The position numbers and the translations under genes are program-made. The notes under the pieces are model-generated. The model saw only the letters and a program-made list of their open reading frames with translations. It was not told the DNA's origin and made no database searches. Shown in pieces: positions 48,600 to 64,000 of a stretch of DNA of 64,000 nt. The DNA comes from Naegleria gruberi. Its lineage: Eukaryota. Location: assembly GCA_000004985.1 (NCBI GenBank), contig GG738897.1. The stretch is one strand, 5' to 3'. Positions within the stretch are counted from its first letter, which is position 1; the number at the start of each line of letters is the position of its first letter.

Positions 48600-49619
48600 A
48601 TGTTTAAACTTGCATTTCCAATACGAGTTACCAAATTATACATGGTGATGATGATCATCATTTCCATCTCTATATTATTCATCATTATATTTACACTTTA
48701 CAATAAAAACATACAGAATAATCATGGAAAATCTACACAAGTAGAACATATATTACATGAATCATTATATCATCGGAATGATGGATTTCCATATATTCCT
48801 TATCAGATGGGAAATAATCAACTCATTCCACGAATAATTCATCAAACATTTAAAAGTCAAACTAGAAATGAAATGACAAGTGGCATGCAAAATGCAAGTA
48901 AAAGTTATGAATCCAATTCAAAATTTAAATATATTTATTATAATGATGATGCAGTTTTACAATTTTTAATTGATAATTATGGAGAAAATTCTGATGAATT
49001 TCATGCATTTAATAATTTAATTCCATTTGCATATAAAATTGATTTTTGGAGATTGGCAGTTTTATATAAAATTGGAGGTTATTATTCAGATATTGATTCA
49101 ATTTTATTAAAAGATTTAGATAAGTGGATTGAAAATAATGCAACAATGGTATTACCTGTTGGATATGCTTCATTTGCTTGGTTTGGATTTGAATTTGCAT
49201 TCATTGGAAGTATTCCTCATCATCCATTATTGAGAATTGCTATGGATATGATTATTTATAATGTGAAAAATAAGTATATTCCAGAAGTTCCTAGAAAATT
49301 ACATGAACTTGATTTATTTCTTAAATTTGTTACAATTTCAGGACCTGTTCTTATGGGAAAAGCTTTTAATAGATATATGAATGAACCTGATGAAGCTCCT
49401 CATAATATTGTAAAGGGAAGAAGAGAAGGTTTTCAATTTCTTGGATTTTGTGATAATGGTATAAAATATTTTACAACAATTCCACATCAGAGAGATTATA
49501 GAGAATGTAGAGGTGAAATTGTCATACAATTCAGATATGAGGAATATCGTCAAGAGAGGAGGAAATCTTATAAACCATATTGGGCAAGTTTTAAGGAAGG
49601 TAACATTTTTAAAACTTAG
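48600..49619 (+). CDS. GT32-family glycosyltransferase (Och1 / Sur1-Csg1 / alpha-1,6-mannosyltransferase-like) with N-terminal signal-anchor
   Basis: Signal-anchor MVMMIIISISILFIIIFTLY; IPRIIHQTFKS (GT32 IP.IIHQ.W motif); DXD-type YYSDIDSILLKDL; WRLAVLYKIGGYYSD. Confidence 0.7.
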   Translation: MFKLAFPIRVTKLYMVMMIIISISILFIIIFTLYNKNIQNNHGKSTQVEHILHESLYHRNDGFPYIPYQMGNNQLIPRIIHQTFKSQTRNEMTSGMQNASKSYESNSKFKYIYYNDDAVLQFLIDNYGENSDEFHAFNNLIPFAYKIDFWRLAVLYKIGGYYSDIDSILLKDLDKWIENNATMVLPVGYASFAWFGFEFAFIGSIPHHPLLRIAMDMIIYNVKNKYIPEVPRKLHELDLFLKFVTISGPVLMGKAFNRYMNEPDEAPHNIVKGRREGFQFLGFCDNGIKYFTTIPHQRDYRECRGEIVIQFRYEEYRQERRKSYKPYWASFKEGNIFKT

Positions 49620-49921
49620 AAAAAAGTTGTAATGCACTAACACAGAAACGAGATTAATGTTGTCGATTAATAAACGAGAAGAAATCAAAGATTTTAGGTA
49701 AAATCTAATTGATTGTGTCATTCAGCTATTTAAAAATGATCTATTAGATGAAGAGATGGTCATTGCATGAGGTAGAACATGAAATTGTTGTCTTGATTTT
49801 TAAATTAAGGGCTTCAAAGTTTTTTGATTTGTTCACAAGAGGTCAGATAGAAAGATCGAAACAATAGTGTTATTTATTCGAATTAATTTAGGGTATTTAT
49901 TTATTTTAGACATAGAGAAAA

Positions 49922-52900
49922 TCAAATAAAACTTTGATTTGATTTTGTTGGAGATGAAGAAGGTGAAGAATTAGTTGATAATTGTTTTAAATTTTTCAAT
50001 CTTGGACTATTTGGACTTGAATTTCCATTTAAATTATTATTGGTAAAAGGTGATTCTAATGAAATATTTCCATTTATAGTATTATTATTAACAATTGAAC
50101 AAATATTTGGAATTGGTAAATTAATATTTCCACTATTTAATTTAATTAAAGAATATTGTTGTAATTTTTTAATAATATTTACATAAGAATTATTTAAATC
50201 ACCATTTAAAAGTAATAAAATAATAAAAAATAAATCATCTGAATATTGAATTAAAGGTTTTTTAAATTTAAATGTTAAAAATGTTTTTAATTGATTAACA
50301 TCAATATTTGTATTAATTAAATCCTTATTTGGATTAATTTCCAAAATTAGAAGTTGTAATAAAATAAATCCAATACATTTTATATCTTTTTTAAAATAAT
50401 CATTTTGATTTTGATTTAAAAGTTCATTCATATTTTCATATTGAATTTGTTCAAATACTAAATTTGTATCGTGATGTTTTTTTAACATTGAATTAATTCT
50501 TTGTTTTAAAATTCTATTTTGGTTTTGAATTTCTAAATTTGTAAAATCTTGTAAATATTCAATTCCACTTAAAATTATTTCAAAATCTTTTTCATTAAAA
50601 AGTAAAGTTTCTAAATTTAAATGATTATGTACTTGTTGCCTTTTATGGAGATATTGAATAACTTCAATTAATTGTTTTCCTATTTTGTAAATTTCAATTT
50701 CTTCAAATAATATTGTTTGATTTTGTAAAAATTGTTGAAATGTTGGATAATAGTTTGTAACATAATAATAATTATCATTAAAATAAAATTCTTCTATTTT
50801 TGATTGTAAATATTTATGTTTAAATATATTATATTTAGAAATCTAATTAAATTAAATATAAAAATATAAAATAAATATTAAATTAAATATTAAATTAAAT
50901 TAAAATATATTATAAACATACCATATTTGTAAATTCTGATAAAGTATTAAATTTACTAATAAATGAAATTTCTAATTTTTGTAAATCATTTACTTTATAA
51001 ATAGTATATTGATTTAAATGTTTAATATTTTCAATAATTTTAAATCTTCCATTATAAATAAATTGATCATTAAATTTCTTTAAAAAATTAAAAATTGCCT
51101 TTTTCTTTTTTCTTGAACTTTTTAATTCTGGTAATTTTAATAAAACTTTATCAAATCTATTTAAACATTCCTTTCTAGCATTACTATCATCTAAATGATT
51201 TACAAAAACATTTAAAATATCAACAATTGTATCAATAGTTGGTCTTGTTAATGGATGTAATTGTAACATTGATATTACTAATCGAATTATTAATTCTGGT
51301 ATTCCATTATTTTTTAACTTGTTACAAATAATTGAATGAGTTTCATTTTCATCGGTTTTTATAGCTTCATGCATTAAAAATTTAGTTTCTTGATTTTTTA
51401 CATTTCTAATAATTTGAATTTCCAATGTTAATAATTCATAAAATACACATCCCAATGAAAATATATCTATTATTATTATTATTATTATTATTATTGGTAT
51501 GAATTAGTATGAATTAGTATCATGATGATGATGATGATATTAAGGTGATGATAAATCCAATTAAATGTTATTAAAATATTAAATATATTAAAATATTAAA
51601 CATACCACTATTTTTATCAATTTTAAAATTACCAGTTGAACATTCAGGTGATAAAGTAATTGGTGTTCCTCTAAAACTAATTGTATTTAAATCATTTGTT
51701 GAAGTTAATAAACCAAAATCACCAATTGCAACTTCTTCCATATTTAGAGTTGAAGAATAATTAATTAAAATATTTTCATTTTTTAAATCTCTATAAATTA
51801 AATTATTAAAATGAATTTGTTGTAAACCTAAACAAATTTGTAATAAAATATTTAACCAATTTGGAACTGTTTTTAAATTTCTTAATTTTGAATTTGTAAT
51901 TAATTGTTGTAATGAAGATTTATAAAAAGGCATAACAAGACAACATGAATATTCATCATTTTTCTTTTCAATTGAATAATCTAAATATGGTATTAGATTT
52001 GGATGTTTTAAATTTGAAACTTGTTCAATATTCCATTGTAATTCTTTTAATTTAATTGAATCTAAATTTTGTATTAATTTTTTAATAGCAACATCTCCAA
52101 ATTGAATTGATTTACAATGAAATACAGTTCCTTCTCCTCCACTTGCTATTTTTTTTAAAACAACATATTTACCATTACATAATGTATGTACTGTTATGGA
52201 TTTTAACCAAATTGGTTCAATTTGAATTAAATTTAAAATTAAATATTTTAATAACATTGAAATATGATTTCCTTTAGAAAATTCAGGTAATTTACCAATT
52301 ATTTGTTTACCAAATATCCACATATGTTTTAATGTATAACTAACTAATTGTATATTAAATATTTCCTTCTTTTTCTTTTTTTGATTATTCAATTTTTTTA
52401 AATCTTGTTCAATAAAACTTTTTATAGCTTCCATACTTGTTTGAAAGGCAATTTGTTCATCTTTAGATATTTTAGAATCGGGAAATTTAACCCTATCAGA
52501 TTTTACAAGTAATTTTATAGCTGCCAATATTGAACATGTTAAAATAAAGATTAAATGTGAACATGATTTTTGTGATAATAATGTATAATATCTATTCAAT
52601 TCTATATCTATATTATTACTAGTAGTAGTTGTATTATTTGTATTATTTGTATTATTTGTATTATTTGTATGAGTATTATTAGAATTATTAGAATTATTAG
52701 ATGATGAATTACCCTGATCAATAGTTGCTCTAAATGAAGTTGTAGGTAAATGTAAATTAATTTCCTCAGTGAGTGGATTATGATCATTGGAATTGAAAAA
52801 ATTATTCATACTACTTCTATTTTGATTATTTTGATTATTATTATTGAATGATTTTAAAACTCTACCAAATGTTGCAGGTGTTGGTAATTGTTTTCTATCA

Positions 52901-55366
52901 ACAAAACCAAAAGCATCAATAACTAATTTTTGTAAATCATCAAAATTATTTGGTATTTGAGTAAAGAATGGTTCATTAGAATCTTCATCAATTGAACTTA
53001 AAATTGTATCTTCTAAATATTGAATAAAAGTTTCAATTATAATTGTAATATTTTGTTCAAATGCAATCATTAGAGTATAAATTAATTCATTCAATCTTGT
53101 TGAATTTTGAAAGAAATTTGTTATATTAATATAAACAAACATGAAATCCTTATTTGATTTTAAATTTAAATGATGATTTTGTATAAAATCTTTCATTCTC
53201 TTTTTAATTAAAAATAAATAATCAAAATTTTGACCAAATTTATCAATTTGTAATTTTTGAAATTCAATTTGATTTTGTAAATAAGCATCAGAAGAAGCTT
53301 TAAAATAAAATTCAAAATATTTTAAATCATATTCACCTTGTATCATATCATATAATGAAAGTGATTGAAAATAATCTAATAATTTTTTATAATTAATTGA
53401 TTTTTCTGTAATTGAATGTAATGTAAAATAATTATCTAATAATTGAATTTTACTAAATTTATCCATTGGATATATTGCTGATTTTAATACTGTTATTACT
53501 TTACCATCACATAAAAAATCAAAATGATCAATTTTATAATAATATTGATTAAAATATTTTGTAAAAAATCTACTTTTAATATTTCCATTTATAGTAATTA
53601 TTTTACCTCTATCTGCTATAAATAAATCATTTTCTAATAATTCTGTTACATAATGTGTTAATAATATTTTAATTGGTTTATAATTTGTATATTCTCCACT
53701 ACAATATACACTTCCTGAATTACTTAAAAAGTAACAATTATTTTTAGAACATTCAATATCTATAATTGGTATATCTTGTTCTATAAAATATGTTAATTTT
53801 TCAAATTCTCCATATATATCATTAGTATGATTTAATCCAAATTTACCAAATTGATTTTCACCATATACATATATATTAAATGTTGATGTTAAAATTAAAA
53901 TACTTTTATCATGACATGAAATTTTTTTAATAAAATCTTTTTGAATATTTCTATTATTATTTAAATTATTTATATTATTTAAATTATTATTTAAATTTAT
54001 ATTATTTATATTATTATTTAAATTATTTATATTATTTAAATTAGAATTATTTAAATTAGAATTATTTAAAATTAATTGATTATTAAAATTTGGAAATGGA
54101 ATTGGTTTTGTACAAAAATTTTTAACATCTTTACATTTAATTCCAATTTCATCATCATTACAAATTCCACAAATAAATAAATCAAAATCTTTTGTAATCA
54201 TTAAAACATAATATTTTGTTAATGATGAAATTGAATGAATATTTGATGTAATAAGTGTTGGTGTTTTAATTACTTTTAATCTATTATCTGTATTACTTGT
54301 TATATCTGAATAATAATTAATTCCACATCCATATAAATTACCACTTTCTATATTATTTTAAATATTATTTATTTAATAAATATATTTAATATTATATTTA
54401 GTTCTATATTATTTTAAATATATTGTAAACATACCAGTTAAAAATAAAGTACTTTCATATAAAGTTGTAATTTTCTTAATTTTTTCACCTTTAAAATTAT
54501 TAAATTGTAATCTAGTTGGTATTTGAGTGAGAGGTTTATTATGTCCTAATCCTAATTGATAATTATTATTATTACCTGCTACCCAAATACTTTCATCCTC
54601 TTTTATTAAATATTAAATATTAAATATGATAAATATTTAAAAACATACCCATTACTATAAAAGTACAATAATTTTCAGTATAAATATTTCTAATTCTAGA
54701 AACATCAATTGAATCTCTATATTCATTCTTTACACCTAACATTATTAAATGATTTTCATACACTTCAGAGTCTTGTTGATCATCAAATTGTTGTTGATCA
54801 TCATCACCATATAATATATAATCATCATCATCAATGGCTACTAAATATTGTCCATAATTAGTATTCTCTTTAATAATACCACTATTTAATATTAATGTAC
54901 TTGATCCACTCAATTTATTTAAGTGATTAATTTTATAAAACAAATATTCTACATTAATAGTATTCTTATTGATCATATATTTACTTAGTGATGATAATGC
55001 TGATGCTGATGCTTTTATATTTTGATTAGATGATGATCCTACTCCTACTATAATATTACTACCACTATTACTACCAGGTGATGATACAGGTGAATCTATT
55101 GGTGTAGCAATTGATGATCTAAAGCCTAGTGCATTGTTATAATTACCTGAAAGGCTTGTTGATGATGATGATGGTGATATTGAAGTATCATTTTTATGAA
55201 TACTAAAATATTCTTGATCCGAAGTAAATAATTTTAATAAATTCTGAGAACTTGTAGTACTGCCACTAGATGTTGACAGTCTATTATTATTGTTATTGGT
55301 GAGAATGGATGGTGAAGAATTGGAGGGTGATAGAGAAGGTGAATTTAATGAATGTCTTGAAGACAT
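49922..55366 (-). CDS. Very large (1696 aa) RCC1-repeat + protein kinase + second kinase-like (pseudokinase?) domain protein with poly-Asn tracts, 5 exons: 54649..55366, 54435..54599, 51606..54347, 50922..51466, 49922..50842
   Basis: Introns 54600..54648 (G|GTATGT..AAAAG), 54348..54434 (GTATGT..TATAG), 51467..51605 (GTATGT..AATAG), 50843..50921 (GTATGT..AATTAG). Exon lengths sum to 5091 nt, or 1696 codons plus stop. RCC1 blades (GNNNNYQLGLGHNK, GNLYGCGINYY, YVYGENQFGKFGL). Kinase: GGEGTVFHCK..VAIKKL, HFNNLIYRDLKNENILIN, IGDFGL, GTPITLSPE, DIFSLGCVFYELL. Second degenerate kinase-like lobe (YLHKRQQVHNHLNLETLLFNE). Confidence 0.7.
52612..52700 (-). repeat. Tandem 11-mer (tattatttgta)x4 plus (attattaga)n within kinase exon 3, encoding (NNT)n / (SNN)n
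   Basis: gtattatttgtattatttgtattatttgtattatttgta at 52624-52664. Translates on the minus strand to TNNTNNTNNTNNT within ...SNNSNNSNNTHTNNTNNTNNTNNTTTTSNN. Confidence 0.8.
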
Positions 55367-55555
55367 TTTTTATACTGTCTGACACTTGGCGTTTGATTGA
55401 TCAACATTGTGGATAATTGATGGATAAAAACTCTTGAGCAGCAAAGAAAGAGCGGGAAGGTAGTTAACTTCCTTTTTTGAGTGTTAGCCACAATATTATG
55501 AATCAAATTTTGACAACAAAACAATTTAGTGTTGATTATAAATTTAAATGAATCA
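55367..55555. promoter_or_regulatory. Divergent (bidirectional) promoter spacer between the kinase gene (minus, ATG 55366) and the C5-methyltransferase gene (plus, ATG 55556)
   Basis: 189-nt spacer of moderate GC (gacacttggcgtttgattgatcaacattgtgg...agagcgggaaggtag) lying between two extremely AT-rich head-to-head genes. Confidence 0.5.
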
Positions 55556-58500
55556 ATGAGTGAATCAGAATCATCACAAGAACAAGTTGAAATTCTAGAT
55601 GATTTATCATATATACATAATTATAAAGATGATATATTATTATTAGATGAATTTTATTTATTAAATGATGAAAATGTTTACATTTCATTAACTGATAATA
55701 ATAATAAACAATCTATTTCTATATATGGAATATTATATAATAGTAATAAAATACCAAATAATTTAATTATAGATATGAATAATTTAATTCATGAAGATTT
55801 AAATATAATAATTTCAAAATTAAAATTAGAATCAAAATTTATTGGAAAATTAATTAATTTTAATATTGAATATGATAAATGTAAAAAACCAATAATTTTA
55901 TTTACTATAAATAGAAATGATAAAATATTTGAATGTGAATGTCTAAGATGTGATTCAGATTATTTTAAAATTTTTAAAAAAATTTATAATTTATCTTCAA
56001 TTACATTTTGTTTAATTTTATCTATTTTTAAATTTCCTAAACATGGAATTAATAAAATTATAAATGAATCAAATTCAATTTCAAAAGAATTTAAATTAAA
56101 TATAAATATAAATTTAGAAATAATTAAAAATAATTATAATTTTATTATTGATGAAATTCATAAATTAAATAATGAAAAAATATTTAAAAGTAAATTTATT
56201 AATGAAATTTCAAATATTTTATTTAATAATTCTGAAATGGAAGAATATTCATCAGATTCTTCAGATTCATCTGATTATGATTATAAATTAACACCTAAAA
56301 AGGAAAGAAAACAATTAAAAAGAAAAAATGAAAATTTAAATTCTAAAAAAAGAAAAAAATTTAAAGAATTTAAAAATGAATTTGAAATTGAATTTTTAAA
56401 AGATGAAAATTCTATTAAAATTAATAATGAAATTATTCAAGATGGAGAAGCAATATATTTATTTCCATATTTAGAATTATTTCCAGATTTTTTAAAAAGT
56501 AAAATTGATATAAATTATTATCCTTATTTTATTTTTCAAATTAAATTTAAAAATAATGAAATTTATGGTAAAAGATTATTTAGACATTATGATTTAGCCT
56601 TTTTAAGTTTAAAAAATAATTTAAATATTTTAACTAGAGATGTAAATGAATTATTTTTAGATGAAAATGAAATTTTAATTCCAATACAAAAATACTATAT
56701 AAGGAAATGTTATGTTTTTTATTTAATTGAAACAAATGAATTTGAATCAATTTCTAAAGATATAAGAGAACGAAGAGATATTTTTTATTGTAAACATTTA
56801 ATTAATATTAAAAATAATTTTCAAAATTTTGAATTACTAAATATAGAAAAATTATATTGTAAAAATATGTTTAATTTAATTGATAATTATTCTAAATTTA
56901 TTTTAAATAATTTAATTATTGAAAATGAAAATACAAGAAATTTATTAATTGGATTGGATTTATTTGGTGGATGTGGAGGTTTATCTTTTGGTTTATCTAA
57001 ATCTGGAATTAATATGAAATATGCAATTGATAATAATATTGATGCTATAAATAATTTTCAATTAAATTTTAAAAATTCAAATACTTTTTGTAAAGATTCA
57101 ATTAAATTTTTACAAAAAGTTAAAATTATTAATGAATTGAGAAAATTATGTANNNNNNNNNNNNNNNNNNNNNNNNNNNNNNNNNNNNNNNNNNNNNNNN
57201 NNNNNNNNNNNNNNNNNNNNNNNNNNNNNNNNNNNNNNNNNNNNNNNNNNNNNNNNNNNNNNNNNNNNNNNNNNNNNNNNNNNNNNNNNNNNNNNNNNNN
57301 NNNNNNNNNNNNNNNNNNNNNNNNNNNNNNNNNNNNNNNNNNNNNNNNNNNNNNNNNNNNNNNNNNNNNNNNNNNNNNNNNNNNNNNNNNNNNNNNNNNN
57401 NNNNNNNNNNNNNNNNNNNNNNNNNNNNNNNNNNNNNNNNNNNNNNNNNNNNNNNNNNNNNNNNNNNNNNNNNNNNNNNNNNNNNNNNNNNNNNNNNNNN
57501 NNNNNNNNNNNNNNNNNNNNNNNNNNNNNNNNNNNNNNNNNNNNNNNNNNNNNNNNNNNNNNNNNNNNNNNNNNNNNNNNNNNNNNNNNNNNNNNNNNNN
57601 NNNNNNNNNNNNNNNNNNNNNNNNNNNNNNNNNNNNNNNNNNNNNNNNNNNNNNNNNNNNNNNNNNNNNNNNNNNNNNNNNNNNNNNNNNNNNNNNNNNN
57701 NNNNNNNNNNNNNNNNNNNNNNNNNNNNNNNNNNNNNNNNNNNNNNNNNNNNNNNNNNNNNNNNNNNNNNNNNNNNNNNNNNNNNNNNNNNNNNNNNNNN
57801 NNNNNNNNNNNNNNNNNNNNNNNNNNNNNNNNNNNNNNNNNNNNNNNNNNNNNNNNNNNNNNNNNNNNNNNNNNNNNNNNNNNNNNNNNNNNNNNNNNNN
57901 NNNNNNNNNNNNNNNNNNNNNNNNNNNNNNNNNNNNNNNNNNNNNNNNNNNNNNNNNNNNNNNNNNNNNNNNNNNNNNNNNNNNNNNNNNNNNNNNNNNN
58001 NNNNNNNNNNNNNNNNNNNNNNNNNNNNNNNNNNNNNNNNNNNNNNNNNNNNNNNNNNNNNNNNNNNNNNNNNNNNNNNNNNNNNNNNNNNNNNNNNNNN
58101 NNNNNNNNNNNNNNNNNNNNNNNNNNNNNNNNNNNNNNNNNNNNNNNNNNNNNNNNNNNNNNNNNNNNNNNNNNNNNNNNNNNNNNNNNNNNNNNNNNNN
58201 NNNNNNNNNNNNNNNNNNNNNNNNNNNNNNNNNNNNNNNNNNNNNNNNNNNNNNNNNNNNNNNNNNNNNNNNNNNNNNNNNNNNNNNNNNNNNNNNNNNN
58301 NNNNNNNNNNNNNNNNNNNNNNNNNNNNNNNNNNNNNNNNNNNNNNNNNNNNNNNNNNNNNNNNNNNNNNNNNNNNNNNNNNNNNNNNNNNNNNNNNNNN
58401 NNNNNNNNNNNNNNNNNNNNNNNNNNNNNNNNNNNNNNNNNNNNNNNNNNNNNNNNNNNNNNNNNNNNNNNNNNNNNNNNNNNNNNNNNNNNNNNNNNNN

Positions 58501-59497
58501 NNNNNNNNNNNNNNNNNNNNNNNNNNNNNNNNNNNNNNNNNNNNNNNNNNNNNNNNNNNNNNNNNNNNNNNNNNNNNNNNNNNNNNNNNNNNNNNNNNNN
58601 NNNNNNNNNNNNNNNNNNNNNNNNNNNNNNNNNNNNNNNNNNNNNNNNNNNNNNNNNNNNNNNNNNNNNNNNNNNNNNNNNNNNNNNNNNNNNNNNNNNN
58701 NNNNNNNNNNNNNNNNNNNNNNNNNNNNNNNNNNNNNNNNNNNNNNNNNNNNNNNNNNNNNNNNNNNNNNNNNNNNTATATATTTATTTAATTTTATTTA
58801 ATTTTATTTATATTTATTATATATTTATTTTATATTTAATATTTAATATTTTAAAATAGAATCAAGAATATTAACAGTTAGAGAATGTACTAGAATTCAA
58901 GGATTTCCAGATACATTTATATTTGTAGATGATAAAGTACCATATTGTAAAAGTCAAAAATTAAAAGAGAAATATACTCAAATAGGAAATGCAGTACCAG
59001 TTGTATTTGGATATCAATTTGGAATTGAATTTAGAAAAGCATATTCTAAATTAAAAAATATTAATAATGATTTTAAATCAATATCAAAATTATTTGAAAC
59101 TATTTTTTTAAATGAAACTAGAGAATTTATGGAAAATAATGATTCATCTTTTATAGAATCAACTCAAATTTGGACTGTTAAAGATTTTGAAATACCAGAT
59201 GATTTAAAAGAAGGTTTTTTATTACCTTTTAGACAAGATGAATTGGATTTTCAAAAATCACAAGAATTTTTACAATATTTATCAGAACCAGTAAAAGAAA
59301 ACACTAAAATTACTACTAAAATTACTTCTAAAAAGACAATAACAACAACAACAATTAGGAATAGTAATGTTGCAGATGAGGACATTGTATCATCAACAGA
59401 TGAAGAGGAAGAATTTGGTTATACTTCTGATTTGGAAGAGGAATTAATAACAAGTTCGATGAGTGAAATTGAAGATAGTGATGATAGTACCATTTAA
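55556..59497 (+). CDS. Dnmt1/MET1-like DNA (cytosine-5)-methyltransferase with a 480-aa Lys/Asn/Ile-rich N-terminal region; exon 1 runs from 55556 into assembly gap 57153..58776, last exon 58860..59497
   Basis: Motif I LIGLDLFGGCGGLSFGLSKSGINMKYAIDNNIDAINNFQLNFKNSNTFCKDSIKFL (compare Dnmt1 LDVFSGCGGLSEGFHQAGI...[31 protein letters not shown]). After the gap and an AT-rich 3' intron end (..TTTTAAAATAG at 58859): ESRILTVRECTRIQGFPDTFIFVDDKVPYCKSQKLKEKYTQIGNAVPVVFGYQFGIEF, i.e. motifs IX (RE.AR.QGFPD.F.F) and X (R.QIGNAVPP). Motifs IV (PCQ), VI (ENV), VIII and the target-recognition domain would lie inside the N-run. ORF 59129..59497 is the acidic C-terminal tail of the same exon. Confidence 0.7.
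57153..58776. other. Assembly gap (1624 N) inside the methyltransferase gene
   Basis: Uninterrupted run of n; the flanks are in different exons of one gene. Confidence 0.99.
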
Positions 59498-59875
59498 CAA
59501 TTCATCTATTGAAATGCAATTGTGACATGTGTGTAATGAAGATGGTTTCCACTCTATCAAGAGTGAAGTTTCAGATAATTTCCAACTATTGTAAACATTA
59601 AGGTTGTTCCTAGTGAGTAAAACAATGTTTTTTTCATAAACTTTACAAAATGTTATCGATTTACGATAATTACAAGGAATTACGTTTAAACAATGTGTTT
59701 TCAATTCATTGACCAGCTTGAATACATAATCATTTGTATTGGGTAAACATCTTGGCTAATGTTTTGGGATATTTAAGGAATTTTTTTAAACAGTAAATTT
59801 CTAAACATGGAGAGTTCGCAATTTTTTTTTTTTATCCAAACGCTCATCAAAACCATTTTGTTGTTTTTTTCTAAG

Positions 59876-62526
59876 GATCTATTCTTTGCTCAATGCTGGA
59901 GTTGGTAAGAGTAGATTTATTAATACAATGATTGAGGCTGATATTTTACCTTCTTCAAGTGGAAATAATCATGTTACCAAGAGTTTAATTAATCTTCAAT
60001 ATGGCAAAGATTATTCAATGGAAATTATTCTTTGCACAGATGAAGAGTTGAGAGAAAGATGTCAAGAAACACAATATCAACTCGATCCAAATTATATTAT
60101 ATTCCTAAATTATATAGTGGTATAACTCGTTTCAAAAATGCACAAAGTCTGAAAGTAATATTGAACAAAGACAATTATCCATGACCAAGGATGATATGTA
60201 TCATGTCAAATTATTTCGTATAACTGCTCCAATTCCACTATTGAAAGAACAAAAATTGGAAATTATTGATGTACCAGGTTTGTTCAGTGGTGAATACAGT
60301 TTACTTTTTAATAGATTAGCAATAGAAGCAAGTTTAATTTCAGATACCATTAATATATTTCCAAATAATTTTCGTTCTATTTTCCCAACAGACATATTTG
60401 ATATTGTTGGAAAGGTATTCTCACATCACTCTGCACAACGTTCTCCTAAAATGTTTGTTTATACTTATGGAGGAAAATATACTAGTATGAAGAATGCTTC
60501 AATAGAATTCTTAAATTCTCTTTCAGAAAAAGAGGTCACTGAAAAAGAAATAGAATTCTCTCAACTTTTAGAAGATTATTTTGATTACAAGTTTGATGAT
60601 GTACCTTTTGATAAATCAAATAGAGTCAGTGAAATTATTGGCAAGGTGGAATTTGTAGAACCAAAAGTTCAAGTTTTAGAATTTTTGAAAGATAATTTCA
60701 TGTTATATCCAATTCCAAATTTAGATTCTAAAAATCATTCAAATGAGTTAAAGTTGACTAAAAGATATTTCAAGTTGACTATAATTAGAGATAAACTCAT
60801 TAAAGCTACAAGACTAGTTGAAGAGATTAGTAGAACAGCAATTCTTTGCTTACCTAAACTTATTTCTAGCTCCAAATATCAGTCTAAAAAGCTTGATGAA
60901 TTTGTTGATGAGATAATGACAGAATGTCAAGAAATAATAGAATTCTTACTTGGTAAATTTAAAGACTAATAATTATTCAAAGAAGGAAAAAGCAGGTAAA
61001 ATTGATAAATGGTTGGGAGATAACTTTTTAACAGAAGAGTTAGAATTTAATAGTGAGTCTAAAGCTCACAACAGTATTTTAAAGCATTTAAAACTATTAG
61101 AAGACAATATTAGAACATTAGCAGAAACATATTTTGTTTCAGAATCAAGTGGAAATGATTGTGAAGATTACAAGGGTTTTAAAGCAATGGTTTTACCAAT
61201 GTTTGATGTTGAGAGTGGTGATCATGTCATTCTTGCAACAGAAACCAAAGGTGTATTGAAAGAATTATTAGGAACCTATTTAAATTCTATTAGTAGTAAC
61301 AAATATGAACCTAATTTCAATCAACATTATGCTCACTTGCATTTATTTGAAACAAATTCCAAAAAATCTCTATCTCTACCAACTAAATCTTCCTATTCAG
61401 ATATTGATGAAATGAAACAAGCAAAGTTATTTAATAATAGAGATGACGTTAATAATTGTTTTAGACATGATAAGACTATGGCTAAAATTGTTCATGAATT
61501 AATGTCAACCATTCCACTTCAATCTAATCTTATTACAATTTCTCNNNNNNNNNNNNNNNNNNNNNNNNNNNNNNNNNNNNNNNNNNNNNNNNNNNNNNNN
61601 NNNNNNNNNNNNNNNNNNNNNNNNNNNNNNNNNNNNNNNNNNNNNNNNNNNNNNNNNNNNNNNNNNNNNNNNNNNNNNNNNNNNNNNNNNNNNNNNNNNN
61701 NNNNNNNNNNNNNNNNNNNNNNNNNNNNNNNNNNNNNNNNNNNNNNNNNNNNNNNNNNNNNNNNNNNNNNNNNNNNNNNNNNNNNNNNNNNNNNNNNNNN
61801 NNNNNNNNNNNNNNNNNNNNNNNNNNNNNNNNNNNNNNNNNNNNNNNNNNNNNNNNNNNNNNNNNNNNNNNNNNNNNNNNNNNNNNNNNNNNNNNNNNNN
61901 NNNNNNNNNNNNNNNNNNNNNNNNNAATTTCTCAATATATTCTCAAGATGAACAAATCAATCTATTCCAATGAGATTGCTGAATGTGAAAACATTAAGAA
62001 TATACTCACTTCTCAAGATAAGAATCGTTGGATTTCTGATATTTCACCATTTTTAGAAAATTTAAAAATAGTTGATAATGAAATTAATTTGAGAAAAAAA
62101 CAAACATCAAATTTAGAATCAACTTTCAAATCTTCATTCTTTTCAATGAATAAGGGTAGAGTTAGTTGTTATGATGGACGTGATACTAAATCATATGGAG
62201 ATAAGATTTATTCAAGAGAGGGATTTAATTACATGATTTCCAATGGAGTGAGTGGTGTTGAAACATTTTATCTTCCATCTATGAAGGATATTTTACCAAT
62301 TCCTGACAATTTAATTATGAAGAAATATGATGAATCAAATCAAGATTTCAATTTGAAAACCTTAATGTTGAAATTCAGATGTAACATGTTATCAAATGGA
62401 GTTGGAGGTTTCTTTCATGTTGGATTTAAATTTAAAAAGAAGATACAAAGAAAACGTTGCAGAAGAACTTCAAAGAGAAAGACTAATTCAAGTTCTTCTT
62501 CTACCATCAATAAGAAGAGAAAGTAA
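59876..62526 (+). CDS. Dynamin-superfamily large GTPase, fragmented model: exon pieces 59876..60116, 60190..60952, 60993..61544 (runs into gap 61545..61925), continuing 61926..62526 with a basic C-terminus; 5' exon not found
   Basis: G1 NAGVGKSRFINTMIEADILPSSSGNNHVTKSLINLQYGKD parallels dynamin [36 protein letters not shown]. G3 EIIDVPGLFSG lies about 95 aa downstream after removing the candidate intron 60117..60189, which is the dynamin-type spacing. Frame changes at 60118-60125 and 60950-60969 are resolved by candidate introns 60117..60189 (weak GTGGTA donor) and 60953..60992 (GTAAAT..AAAAAG), or are assembly indels. ORFs 60181..60969, 60950..61951 and 61948..62526 belong to one gene. Confidence 0.45.
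61545..61925. other. Assembly gap (381 N) inside the dynamin-like GTPase gene
   Basis: Uninterrupted run of n. Confidence 0.99.
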
Positions 62527-62821
62527 TCCAATTAATTGTAAATATGTAAACCAAATAATTGTAAATATATTGTGTAAATAAATATTGAGATTATAAAGAA
62601 ATATCTGGATTAAATCATTTACAGCTAACACTTTTAGAACAGTGTTTTTAGTGTTCAGCAAGGGGAAAAAGCGTTTCACCACCAACACATGGTTTATCAA
62701 AATTACAATAATCTCCCCATCTGTATTGAATAAAAGAAACAAGAACAATCATAATAGTAATATGGCAAATGTTACAACAAATGCAAAGTAATAGTAGAGG
62801 AGGTGTTTAACAATAATTTAT

Positions 62822-64000
62822 TTAAATAATTAATAAACCAGATTTAAAAGCATGTACAAATTCATTAAAATCAATAATACCATTCTTATCTGTATCTAAT
62901 TGATCAAAAATAATTCTAGTTTCATTCAATAATTGATTTTCATTTAAATTTTGAAATTTACTCATTGATCTTCTCATATGTAATAATTCATCAAATGTAA
63001 TTGAATTATCCTTATTAATATCAAATGTATTAAATAAATGATATAATACTTGTTCTGTATTATTATTATTATTATTTAAATTATTATTATTATTTAAATT
63101 ATTATTATTATTTATATTATTATTTAAATTATTATTATTATTATTATTTAATTGATTATAAAACATTAAAAAAGCAACAACAAATTCTCTAAAATCAATT
63201 TTACCAGAATGATCAGTATCAAATAAATTGAAATGATTTTCAATAAATAATTTATCATTAATATTAAATAATTTCATAATAATATTAATAAAATCATTTC
63301 TAGATAAAGTACCAGTTTTTTTATCTGAAATATTTTGAAAATATTCTAATAATTTGTTAAATAAATCTGAATCTATATTTGTATTTTGAGTTAATTGTTT
63401 AAAAGTTTTATATTTTAATTCAATTTCTTCATTTTCTAAATCAATTAAAGATTTACTTGATAAAGTTAAAGTTTTATAATAATCTTGATCATTTAAATTT
63501 GAAATATTTTGAATTGATTGTAAAATTTTAGATAATTTTATAATTTTATCTTTTTTTTCTTGATATTGTAATTTAAATGAATTTAATAATGGATTTGTTT
63601 GTTTTTCAATTAAATTAAAAGATTGATTTAAAATTTCTTGAATTAAATTTTCAATTTTTAAAGAAATTTCTTTAAAATTAAATTTATCAAATAAATTTTT
63701 TAAAAATAATAATAAAATATTTAAATATTCTTCTAATGATCTTGTTTGTTGTTTTGAATATTTCCAATTATTTATAGATTCTCTAATTGGTGAATTTACA
63801 ATTCCTTTTAATAAATTTAAAATTTCAATTATATTTGAAATATTAAATTTTTGTAAAATAATTAATTGATAATTTATAATTTCATTTTTAGTAACTCCAC
63901 TAAATAAAGAACTTCCTAATTGAGTAGATGGTAATAATTTACCATTTGTATTATTTAAAATTGATAATAAACAATTAATTGTATAATAAATTAATTCAAA
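62822..64000 (-). CDS. Coiled-coil protein with C-terminal EF-hand calcium-binding domains and poly-Asn insert; 5' end lies beyond the window (partial)
   Basis: The reading frame is open on the minus strand from 62822 to the window edge (...KIENLIQEILNQSFNLIEKQTNPLLNSFKLQYQEKKDKIIKLSKILQ...SDKKTGTLSRNDFINI...). EF-hand loops DTDHSGKIDFREF, DINKDNSITFDEL, DTDKNGIIDFNEF. ORF-track entry 62822..63277 is only the segment after an internal Met. Confidence 0.55.
   Translation of the reverse strand, partial: FELIYYTINCLLSILNNTNGKLLPSTQLGSSLFSGVTKNEIINYQLIILQKFNISNIIEILNLLKGIVNSPIRESINNWKYSKQQTRSLEEYLNILLLFLKNLFDKFNFKEISLKIENLIQEILNQSFNLIEKQTNPLLNSFKLQYQEKKDKIIKLSKILQSIQNISNLNDQDYYKTLTLSSKSLIDLENEEIELKYKTFKQLTQNTNIDSDLFNKLLEYFQNISDKKTGTLSRNDFINIIMKLFNINDKLFIENHFNLFDTDHSGKIDFREFVVAFLMFYNQLNNNNNNNLNNNINNNNNLNNNNNLNNNNNNTEQVLYHLFNTFDINKDNSITFDELLHMRRSMSKFQNLNENQLLNETRIIFDQLDTDKNGIIDFNEFVHAFKSGLLII
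63060..63150 (-). repeat. (AAT/ATT)n microsatellite-like tract encoding poly-Asn in the EF-hand gene; a similar tract at 53930..54080 lies in the kinase gene
   Basis: tattattattattatttaaattattattattatttaaattattattattatttatattattatttaaattattattattattattattt translates to NNNNNNLNNNINNNNNLNNNNNLNNNNNN. Confidence 0.8.

Follow-up and report, generated by a model that had tools for sequence, protein, structure and literature searches.

Introduction

The closest described systems to the gene considered here, a broken dynamin-like GTPase gene of Naegleria gruberi (positions 59498-62526, plus strand, of a stretch of 64,000 nucleotides (nt) of contig GG738897.1, assembly GCA_000004985.1; this whole stretch is referred to as the window), are BDLP (2j68/2j69), SynDLP, IniA, MFN1/2 and Fzo1. 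All of them are alike with it in the Dynamin_N-type G domain, the GxGKS core, the threonine of switch I and the DxPG motif. These bacterial dynamin-like proteins (BDLPs) and mitofusins are the best profile and fold matches of the Naegleria family to which the gene is assigned below, and they share with it a long helical region behind the G domain. However, the Naegleria family is without a recognised transmembrane or paddle region and, unlike the BDLPs and mitofusins, carries a coiled coil at the N-terminus and a polybasic KKRK tail at the C-terminus. Its C-terminal part is also longer by about 400 residues, which form an alpha/beta domain and a conserved domain, neither of them matched in Pfam. 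In addition, the canonical [NT]KxD G4 motif is not evident in the family alignment, and the copy at this locus is frame-broken and has a defective G1.

Closer relatives are three Naegleria proteins annotated as 'Dynamin N-terminal domain-containing proteins' (NAEGRDRAFT_58724, C9374_003664 and FDP41_011529), which are collinear with the locus copy from just before the P-loop to KKRK at 36-39% identity and share with it the blocks FPNxFRS..PTD, FDYKFDD, PIPN, GRVxC.DG, KIYSR.G.NY and NGVGGF.H.GFK. The locus copy differs from these proteins in that it lies outside their clade, is without the N-terminal 70-80 amino acids (aa), contains two frameshifts and a deviant P-loop, and has its middle domain in a scaffold gap. 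The IRG, GBP and Mx proteins can be compared by analogy only: the Naegleria family is likewise lineage-restricted and variable in copy number, with pseudogenes frequent between close species, but there is no specific sequence relationship, and IRG chains matched only at E > 0.01. In its variable copy number and frequent pseudogenes, the family resembles the IRG and GBP genes, which are subject to birth-and-death evolution.

We conclude, with a probability of roughly 0.57, that the locus holds a paralogue of the Naegleria large-GTPase family that was inactivated recently and is now a young pseudogene.

Results

A Naegleria family of dynamin-like proteins

The product of the locus matches the Pfam family Dynamin_N (PF00350) with 36.6 bits (cut-off 27, E 5.8e-9), and its intact paralogues reach 43-51 bits. 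This bears out an earlier note, made from the letters alone, that had assigned the gene to the dynamin-type GTPases; the G1, switch I and G3 strings and the polybasic tail listed there are present as quoted. Word-index protein searches returned only the gene model published for the locus itself, a 605-aa 'predicted protein [Naegleria gruberi]' (P0001) located on a 326,913-bp contig. It took an exhaustive HMMER search, covering 1.84 billion representatives, to find the family; this search returned 11 proteins. The closest member is C9374_003664 of N. lovaniensis (P0002; 1,013 aa, 40% identity, E 3.5e-115). N. gruberi itself contributes NAEGRDRAFT_58724 (1,013 aa, 39% identity to the locus copy) and a distant paralogue, NAEGRDRAFT_75306 (1,075 aa), and N. 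fowleri contributes FDP41_011529 (813 aa) and the adjacent fragments FDP41_003467 and FDP41_003468. Two further family proteins, of 1,063 and 1,130 aa, stem from ENA metagenome contigs without an organism assignment. The E-values of the members P0003 and P0005 were 5.1e-105 and 6.7e-79, respectively. A rotifer protein with Dynamin_N and T5orf172 domains was a weak match and was not counted as a member. The same applies to a repetitive protein in which one 30-residue query stretch matched nine times (E 4.4e-5) and which has no significant Pfam match (best Collagen, 20.6 bits versus a cut-off of 27.2).

The family is known only from Naegleria genomes and the two metagenome contigs. Its members have about 1,000-1,100 aa and consist of an N-terminal coiled coil of 70-120 aa, the Dynamin_N G domain, a helical region, an alpha/beta domain and a conserved C-terminal domain that finishes in a serine-rich stretch and the KKRK tail. 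No relatives were found in IMG/VR (scanned with two back-translated peptide patterns) or in two JGI metagenome scans, and neither the exhaustive protein search nor the IMG/VR patterns retrieved a viral relative. In the literature searched, no papers citing the family accessions were found.

In a PDB profile search, the G domain matched mitofusin-1 (E 6.5e-6) and the BDLP of Nostoc (2e-5). A Foldseek search with the AlphaFold2 model of the paralogue P0003 had SynDLP, BDLP, mitofusin, IniA and dynamin at the top (E 5e-8 to 1e-5). In this model, the predicted local distance difference test (pLDDT) score is 75-90 for the G domain and 54 on average for the whole model, and the stalk helices are of low confidence. 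The dynamin-like G-domain fold with a helical stalk was seen in the model of this paralogue, not of the locus copy. For the C-terminal half, Pfam yielded nothing consistent, even with E-values of up to 10 admitted. In the sequence alignment, no canonical [NT]KxD is evident at the expected place of G4, where the conserved block IFPNxFRS..PTD stands. Taken together, the sequence comparisons assign the locus copy, as a further member, to an uncharacterised lineage-specific dynamin-like family.

Segments and reading frames of the locus copy

The elements of the locus are given below; reading frames are named by the remainder mod 3 of the codon start positions (frames 0, 1 and 2).

59498..59804, plus strand: 5' flank, from the methylase stop codon to the opening of the P-loop frame; 26-31% GC
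59805..60122, plus strand: coding segment 1 (frame 0), with G1 and G2; family homology from about 59838 to 60077
59807..59809, plus strand: nearest upstream ATG, in frame 2, one base off the P-loop frame (0)
59822..59833, plus strand: T12 homopolymer, the sole A/T run of at least 10 in the window
59889..59912, plus strand: deviant Walker A / G1, LNAGVGKS, placed by alignment
59970..59978, plus strand: switch I / G2, 'HVT', a conserved alignment column
60117..60122, plus strand: frameshift 1, net +1 nt, 'gtggta', placed by stops in both frames and by homology
60118..60966, plus strand: coding segment 2 (frame 1), with the remaining G domain, G3 and the onset of the helical region
60268-60279, plus strand: G3, DVPG, a conserved alignment column
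about 60961..60966, plus strand: frameshift 2, net +1 nt, 'aaagac', placed by collinearity with homologues
60965..61544, plus strand: coding segment 3 (frame 2), helical region, corresponding to P0002 residues 444-631; enters the gap
61545..61925, no strand: scaffold gap of 381 N, covering roughly P0002 residues 632-812 (about 540 nt)
61927..62526, plus strand: coding segment 4 (frame 1), conserved C-terminal domain, P0002 residues 813-1013
62527..62824, plus strand: 3' flank, 26% GC, of ordinary composition; ends at the stop of a convergent AT-rich EF-hand gene

The two frame changes and the scaffold gap described in the earlier note were both recovered. Frame 0 opens at 59805 after a TAA (59802-59804) and closes at TAA 60123-60125, and frame 1 of segment 2 is closed by TAA 60967-60969, beyond which the homology continues in frame 2. 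At this locus, the gap conceals the middle alpha/beta domain of the family (P0003 residues 630-880). Segment 4 encodes the serine-rich and polybasic tail ending in KKRK, which is followed by TAA 62524-62526. A 23-nt tandem duplication (91% identical, 62523-62568) begins at the stop codon of the GTPase open reading frame (ORF). As had also been noted, the gene lies directly 3' of a methyltransferase gene on the same strand, the stop codon of which occupies 59495-59497. The DNA of the locus has no paralogues or repeats elsewhere in the window, and no Rfam families were detected in 59000-63000 and no tRNAs in 49000-64000.

The frame changes are collinear with intact homologues

The earlier note had suggested that the frames are bridged by two short spliceosomal GT-AG introns (60117..60189 and 60953..60992), with the 5' exon further upstream, and had offered an assembly indel or a pseudogene as the alternative. 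The GT and AG dinucleotides are present at these positions, and short introns do exist in Naegleria: a pirin-like gene of the window contains a genuine intron of 56 nt (48029-47974, minus strand), which has the donor GTATGT and the acceptor AG. Thus, size alone is no argument against the introns, and it is the homology that decides. A tblastn search with the homologues yielded collinear segments along the locus, through both shift sites; those of P0002 are as follows.

59892-60065, plus strand: P0002 residues 82-139
60121-60963, plus strand: P0002 residues 162-438
60971-61543, plus strand: P0002 residues 444-631
61927-62523, plus strand: P0002 residues 813-1013

At the first site, TAG 60115-60117 closes frame 1 and TAA 60123-60125 closes frame 0, so that the switch must occur within 60117-60122. 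The proposed intron of 73 nt would remove 'YNSFQKCTKSESNIEQRQLSMTK', which aligned to 'FPSLDKLVKEMSNKLKAMTDN' of P0002 and to its counterparts in other members. It also covers 'YNSFQKCTKSESNIEQRQLSMTKDDMY', located 3' of the shift, which aligned to 'FPSLDKLVKEMSNKLKAMTDNDMY' of N. lovaniensis and the equivalent stretches. At the second site, the proposed 40-nt intron spans 13 collinear codons and would remove 'KFKTNNYSKKEKA', which is collinear with 'GFKQKAKKNQSPK', with 21 residues on each side to the next conserved block. Here, 'GKFK' and 'TNNYSKKEKAGKIDKWLGDNF' correspond to 'KGFK' and 'QKAKKNQSPKRAIGKLLKDEF' without any difference in length and, therefore, a net change of +1 nt is placed at about 60961-60966. 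The homologue of N. lovaniensis is intronless and consists of one exon of 3,042 nt.

Because the homologues are collinear through both proposed introns, with 21 and 13 encoded residues aligned at equal lengths, the frame changes are to be read as net +1-nt indels and not as introns. Further points against splicing are that 40 nt is less than the sole verified intron of the window, that the donor GTGGTA is off consensus, and that no exon resembling the family N-terminus is found between the methylase gene and the P-loop. The intron account is thus extremely improbable, and of the two options that had been offered, the indel or pseudogene was borne out as a class.

The same comparison bears on the public model P0001. 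Its peptides map exactly to exons at 59928-59972, 60118-60276, 60391-60903, 60941-61489 and 61975-62526. The first three introns, of 145, 114 and 37 nt, excise G1 and switch I together with a portion of the G domain, and the fourth, of 485 nt, spans the scaffold gap; 38 in-frame conserved codons are dropped by these introns. The model is an artefact of four invented introns, and its entry ought to carry a warning of a pseudogene or of low sequence quality.

The N-terminal region is missing and the P-loop is altered

As the earlier note had recognised, the P-loop is without a usable in-frame start. The first ATG in its frame is at 59928, 3' of the P-loop, and this is the codon used as the start by the public model. 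The ATG at 59807 is indeed off by one base (frame 2 versus frame 0), and T11 or T14 in place of T12 would bring it into the P-loop frame. The P-loop exon had been thought to open at 59876; however, the frame is already open from 59805, and position 59876 merely follows a possible AG acceptor. The T12 run, which had been singled out as a notable indel-prone homopolymer, is present at 59822-59833, but its occurrence is within chance, with 1 A/T run of at least 10 observed in the window versus 1.47 expected in shuffles.

Homology in frame 0 reaches to about 59838, just past the T run ('SKP FCCFFL' versus 'PKP IVVAFLG'). Upstream of about 59832, nothing like the family's N-terminal coiled coil was found by tblastn in any frame, and the 5' flank (59498..59804) holds no ORF and shows no resemblance to this part of the homologues. 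The distance between the methylase stop codon and the P-loop is only 400 nt. The 'missing 5' exon' of the earlier note was correct insofar as a 5' part is missing, but it is better termed a missing N-terminal region, given the coiled coil of 70-120 aa that the homologues carry.

The G1 consensus GxxxxGK[ST] is not present in the locus copy, which reads LNAGVGKS: the first glycine is lost and the GKS core is intact. Among the other members, the first position of the P-loop is G in five (GNAG[MV]GKS or GSSGLGKS) and A in P0010 (AKPGYGKS). In the alignment, the locus copy has R at this glycine, together with an insertion of 5 aa (IYSLL).

Two models would rescue the 5' end, both yielding an N-terminally shortened protein. 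In the first, translation starts at ATG 59807 with a T11 run. In the second, it starts at ATG 59693 and proceeds for 17 codons to a GTAAAC donor at 59743; an intron of 133 nt (59743-59875), ending with a polypyrimidine tract and AG 59875, leaves the junction codon GGG. This alternative 5' structure (59693-59875) may be a chance combination. A fusion of the methylase and the GTPase by splicing into AG 59875 was also considered and was rejected because there is no in-phase consensus donor within the methylase ORF.

Recent inactivation or sequencing errors

The locus does not contain a single uninterrupted ORF: the frame changes twice, each time by a net +1, and the P-loop is not preceded by an in-frame start. 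The lack of a counterpart to the N-terminal 70-120 aa and the altered P-loop lie beyond what base-calling error can produce. At the same time, the locus copy is well conserved. It retains 151 of the 216 positions that are invariant in four close homologues (70%; intact members retain 71-88% in a leave-one-out comparison) and 44 of 49 deep invariants, and its approximately 780 codons are free of in-frame stops. The conservation of residues and the absence of stops indicate that selection acted until recently, so that any inactivation must be recent.

Degraded copies also occur in N. fowleri. One of them (L004 5974-8002, VFQX01000034.1) is split into four frame segments, carries internal deletions and lacks the N-terminus; in the annotation, it appears as two separate small genes, FDP41_003467 and FDP41_003468. 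The other, the syntenic orthologue (L003 9971-12424), is without residues 1-161 including the P-loop, and no P-loop coding sequence was found within 10 kb upstream of it. These copies mark the family as prone to decay.

Several observations weigh against inactivation. All three frame problems are cured by one base less each (T12 to T11, 60117-60122 and 60961-60966), and the corrected sequence has an ORF from ATG 59807 to 62526. The lesions lie within a contig of only 2,768 nt (58777-61544) that is flanked by two scaffold gaps; low Sanger coverage and over-called bases in this contig are plausible. High conservation and the absence of stops are equally expected of a live gene. Moreover, look-ups of exact products (P0001, P0003 and two ORFs of the window) gave no match in other assemblies.

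The gene could accordingly be intact and functional but mis-sequenced, with both frameshifts and the length of the T run being base-calling or assembly errors; it would then encode a shortened member starting at ATG 59807 or at ATG 59693 with the 133-nt intron. The uniform +1-nt sign of the three defects, the short contig between N runs, the lack of in-frame stops and a conservation of invariant sites equal to that of intact paralogues all fit this possibility, as do the plausible donor and acceptor of a 5' exon (donor GTAAAC 59743, polypyrimidine tract and AG 59875) and the 56-nt intron of the pirin-like gene, which shows that short introns occur in the window. However, mis-sequencing leaves the missing coiled-coil N-terminus and the lost first glycine of the P-loop unexplained, and neither shift site is a long homopolymer. 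Furthermore, the methylase exon 58862-59494, which is located on the same contig as the lesions of the GTPase gene, reads without a frameshift, and the two N. fowleri copies are truly degraded in a different, better assembly. We regard a mis-sequenced functional gene as less likely than the young pseudogene.

An old paralogue in an AT-rich neighbourhood

In a distance tree, the locus copy branched outside the clade formed by NAEGRDRAFT_58724 and the orthologues of N. lovaniensis and N. fowleri. It is an old paralogue, of which no orthologue was seen in N. lovaniensis or N. fowleri. At about 39% identity to the nearest relative, its synonymous sites are saturated. The orthologues of these two species share a neighbourhood of UbiE methyltransferase, cyclin, trypsin and abhydrolase genes, and this conserved neighbourhood indicates that the family is a resident nuclear gene family and not a mobile element.

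The composition of the locus copy differs from that of its neighbours. The GC content at third codon positions (GC3) is 0.18-0.24 in the GTPase segments. The flanking genes have values of 0.03-0.07, and ordinary genes of the window (1-44 kb) range from 0.17 to 0.33. The non-coding flanks of the GTPase segments, at 26-29% GC, are like ordinary Naegleria DNA. After a gradual fall of GC3 between 44 and 50 kb, an AT-rich block extends from 49900 to 64000, with GC3 values of 0.03-0.07, 9-18% asparagine, poly-asparagine tracts and very AT-rich GT..AG introns. Its genes encode a protein with RCC1 and a protein kinase, a C5-DNA methylase and an EF-hand/EH protein. The block could be an isochore, heterochromatin, centromere-like or foreign DNA. 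Both composition junctions lie inside contigs and were therefore not made by scaffolding. The composition suggests that the copy recently arrived in the AT-biased region or was shielded from it. Probably the more unusual feature of the locus is that a gene of ordinary composition sits in an extremely AT-rich block, the genes of which contain introns.

The sharp difference from both neighbours could also be taken to mean that the copy is foreign DNA, that is, giant virus or transposon cargo, recently inserted into the AT-rich region, and giant viruses of Naegleria do encode dynamin-like proteins (PMC11043551). However, the composition fits ordinary N. gruberi genes and not a foreign genome, all identified relatives are Naegleria nuclear genes, those of N. 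lovaniensis and N. fowleri being syntenic, and the database searches described above detected no viral relatives. No terminal inverted repeats, long terminal repeats, long direct repeats or target-site duplications were found to flank the patch of ordinary composition. A foreign origin is thus very improbable.

Possible history and mechanism

For a young pseudogene, the following history can be envisaged. The locus copy would have split early from its paralogues and would have been under selection for most of its history. It would then have become non-functional as the N-terminal region, the start codon and the first glycine of the P-loop disappeared and two frameshifts of +1 nt arose. It may have arrived recently in the AT-rich neighbourhood or have escaped its bias. 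As assembled, the locus copy cannot make a GTPase protein of this kind.

Judging from sequence and the fold model, the intact members most likely act like BDLP/mitofusin-type GTPases. They would be GTP-driven mechanoenzymes, in which GTP binding leads to dimerisation of the G domains and to a conformational change of the helical region, and the polybasic tail might target them to the membrane or the nucleus.

The middle domain of the family gave weak fold matches, which were consistently GT-A and included phage TET-associated glycosyltransferases, and the locus copy adjoins a C5-DNA methylase gene. N. gruberi is known for its TET enzymes, and copies of the family have degraded independently in this species and in N. 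fowleri. It is conceivable, albeit improbable, that the family combines a BDLP/mitofusin-type GTPase with a GT-A-like, possibly glycosyltransferase, domain and a nuclear-type KKRK tail in an unrecognised, fast-turnover Naegleria system. If true, this may point to a role in DNA modification or defence under birth-and-death evolution. The locus itself is an ordinary decaying, or poorly sequenced, paralogue. A family with degraded copies in two species is a modest lead on lineage-specific large GTPases, including those of the pathogen N. fowleri. The parts that merit further study are the AT-rich neighbourhood and the family's C-terminal domains, which are unexplored.

Neighbouring genes

A gene for a piggyBac-type DDE transposase of 1,338 aa (PF13843), which is missing from the syntenic stretch of N. 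fowleri as annotated, is located in N. lovaniensis (L001 16007-20781) about 3 kb 3' of the intact family member.

The C5-cytosine DNA methylase gene upstream of the GTPase gene (55529-59497, plus strand) carries a long N-terminal extension and contains an intron whose end is at 58859; a gap of 1,624 N (57153-58776) breaks the gene. A database search with the methylase returned no N. gruberi protein, and the gene may be unannotated. Two DNMT1 enzymes have been reported for N. gruberi (PMC12344493).

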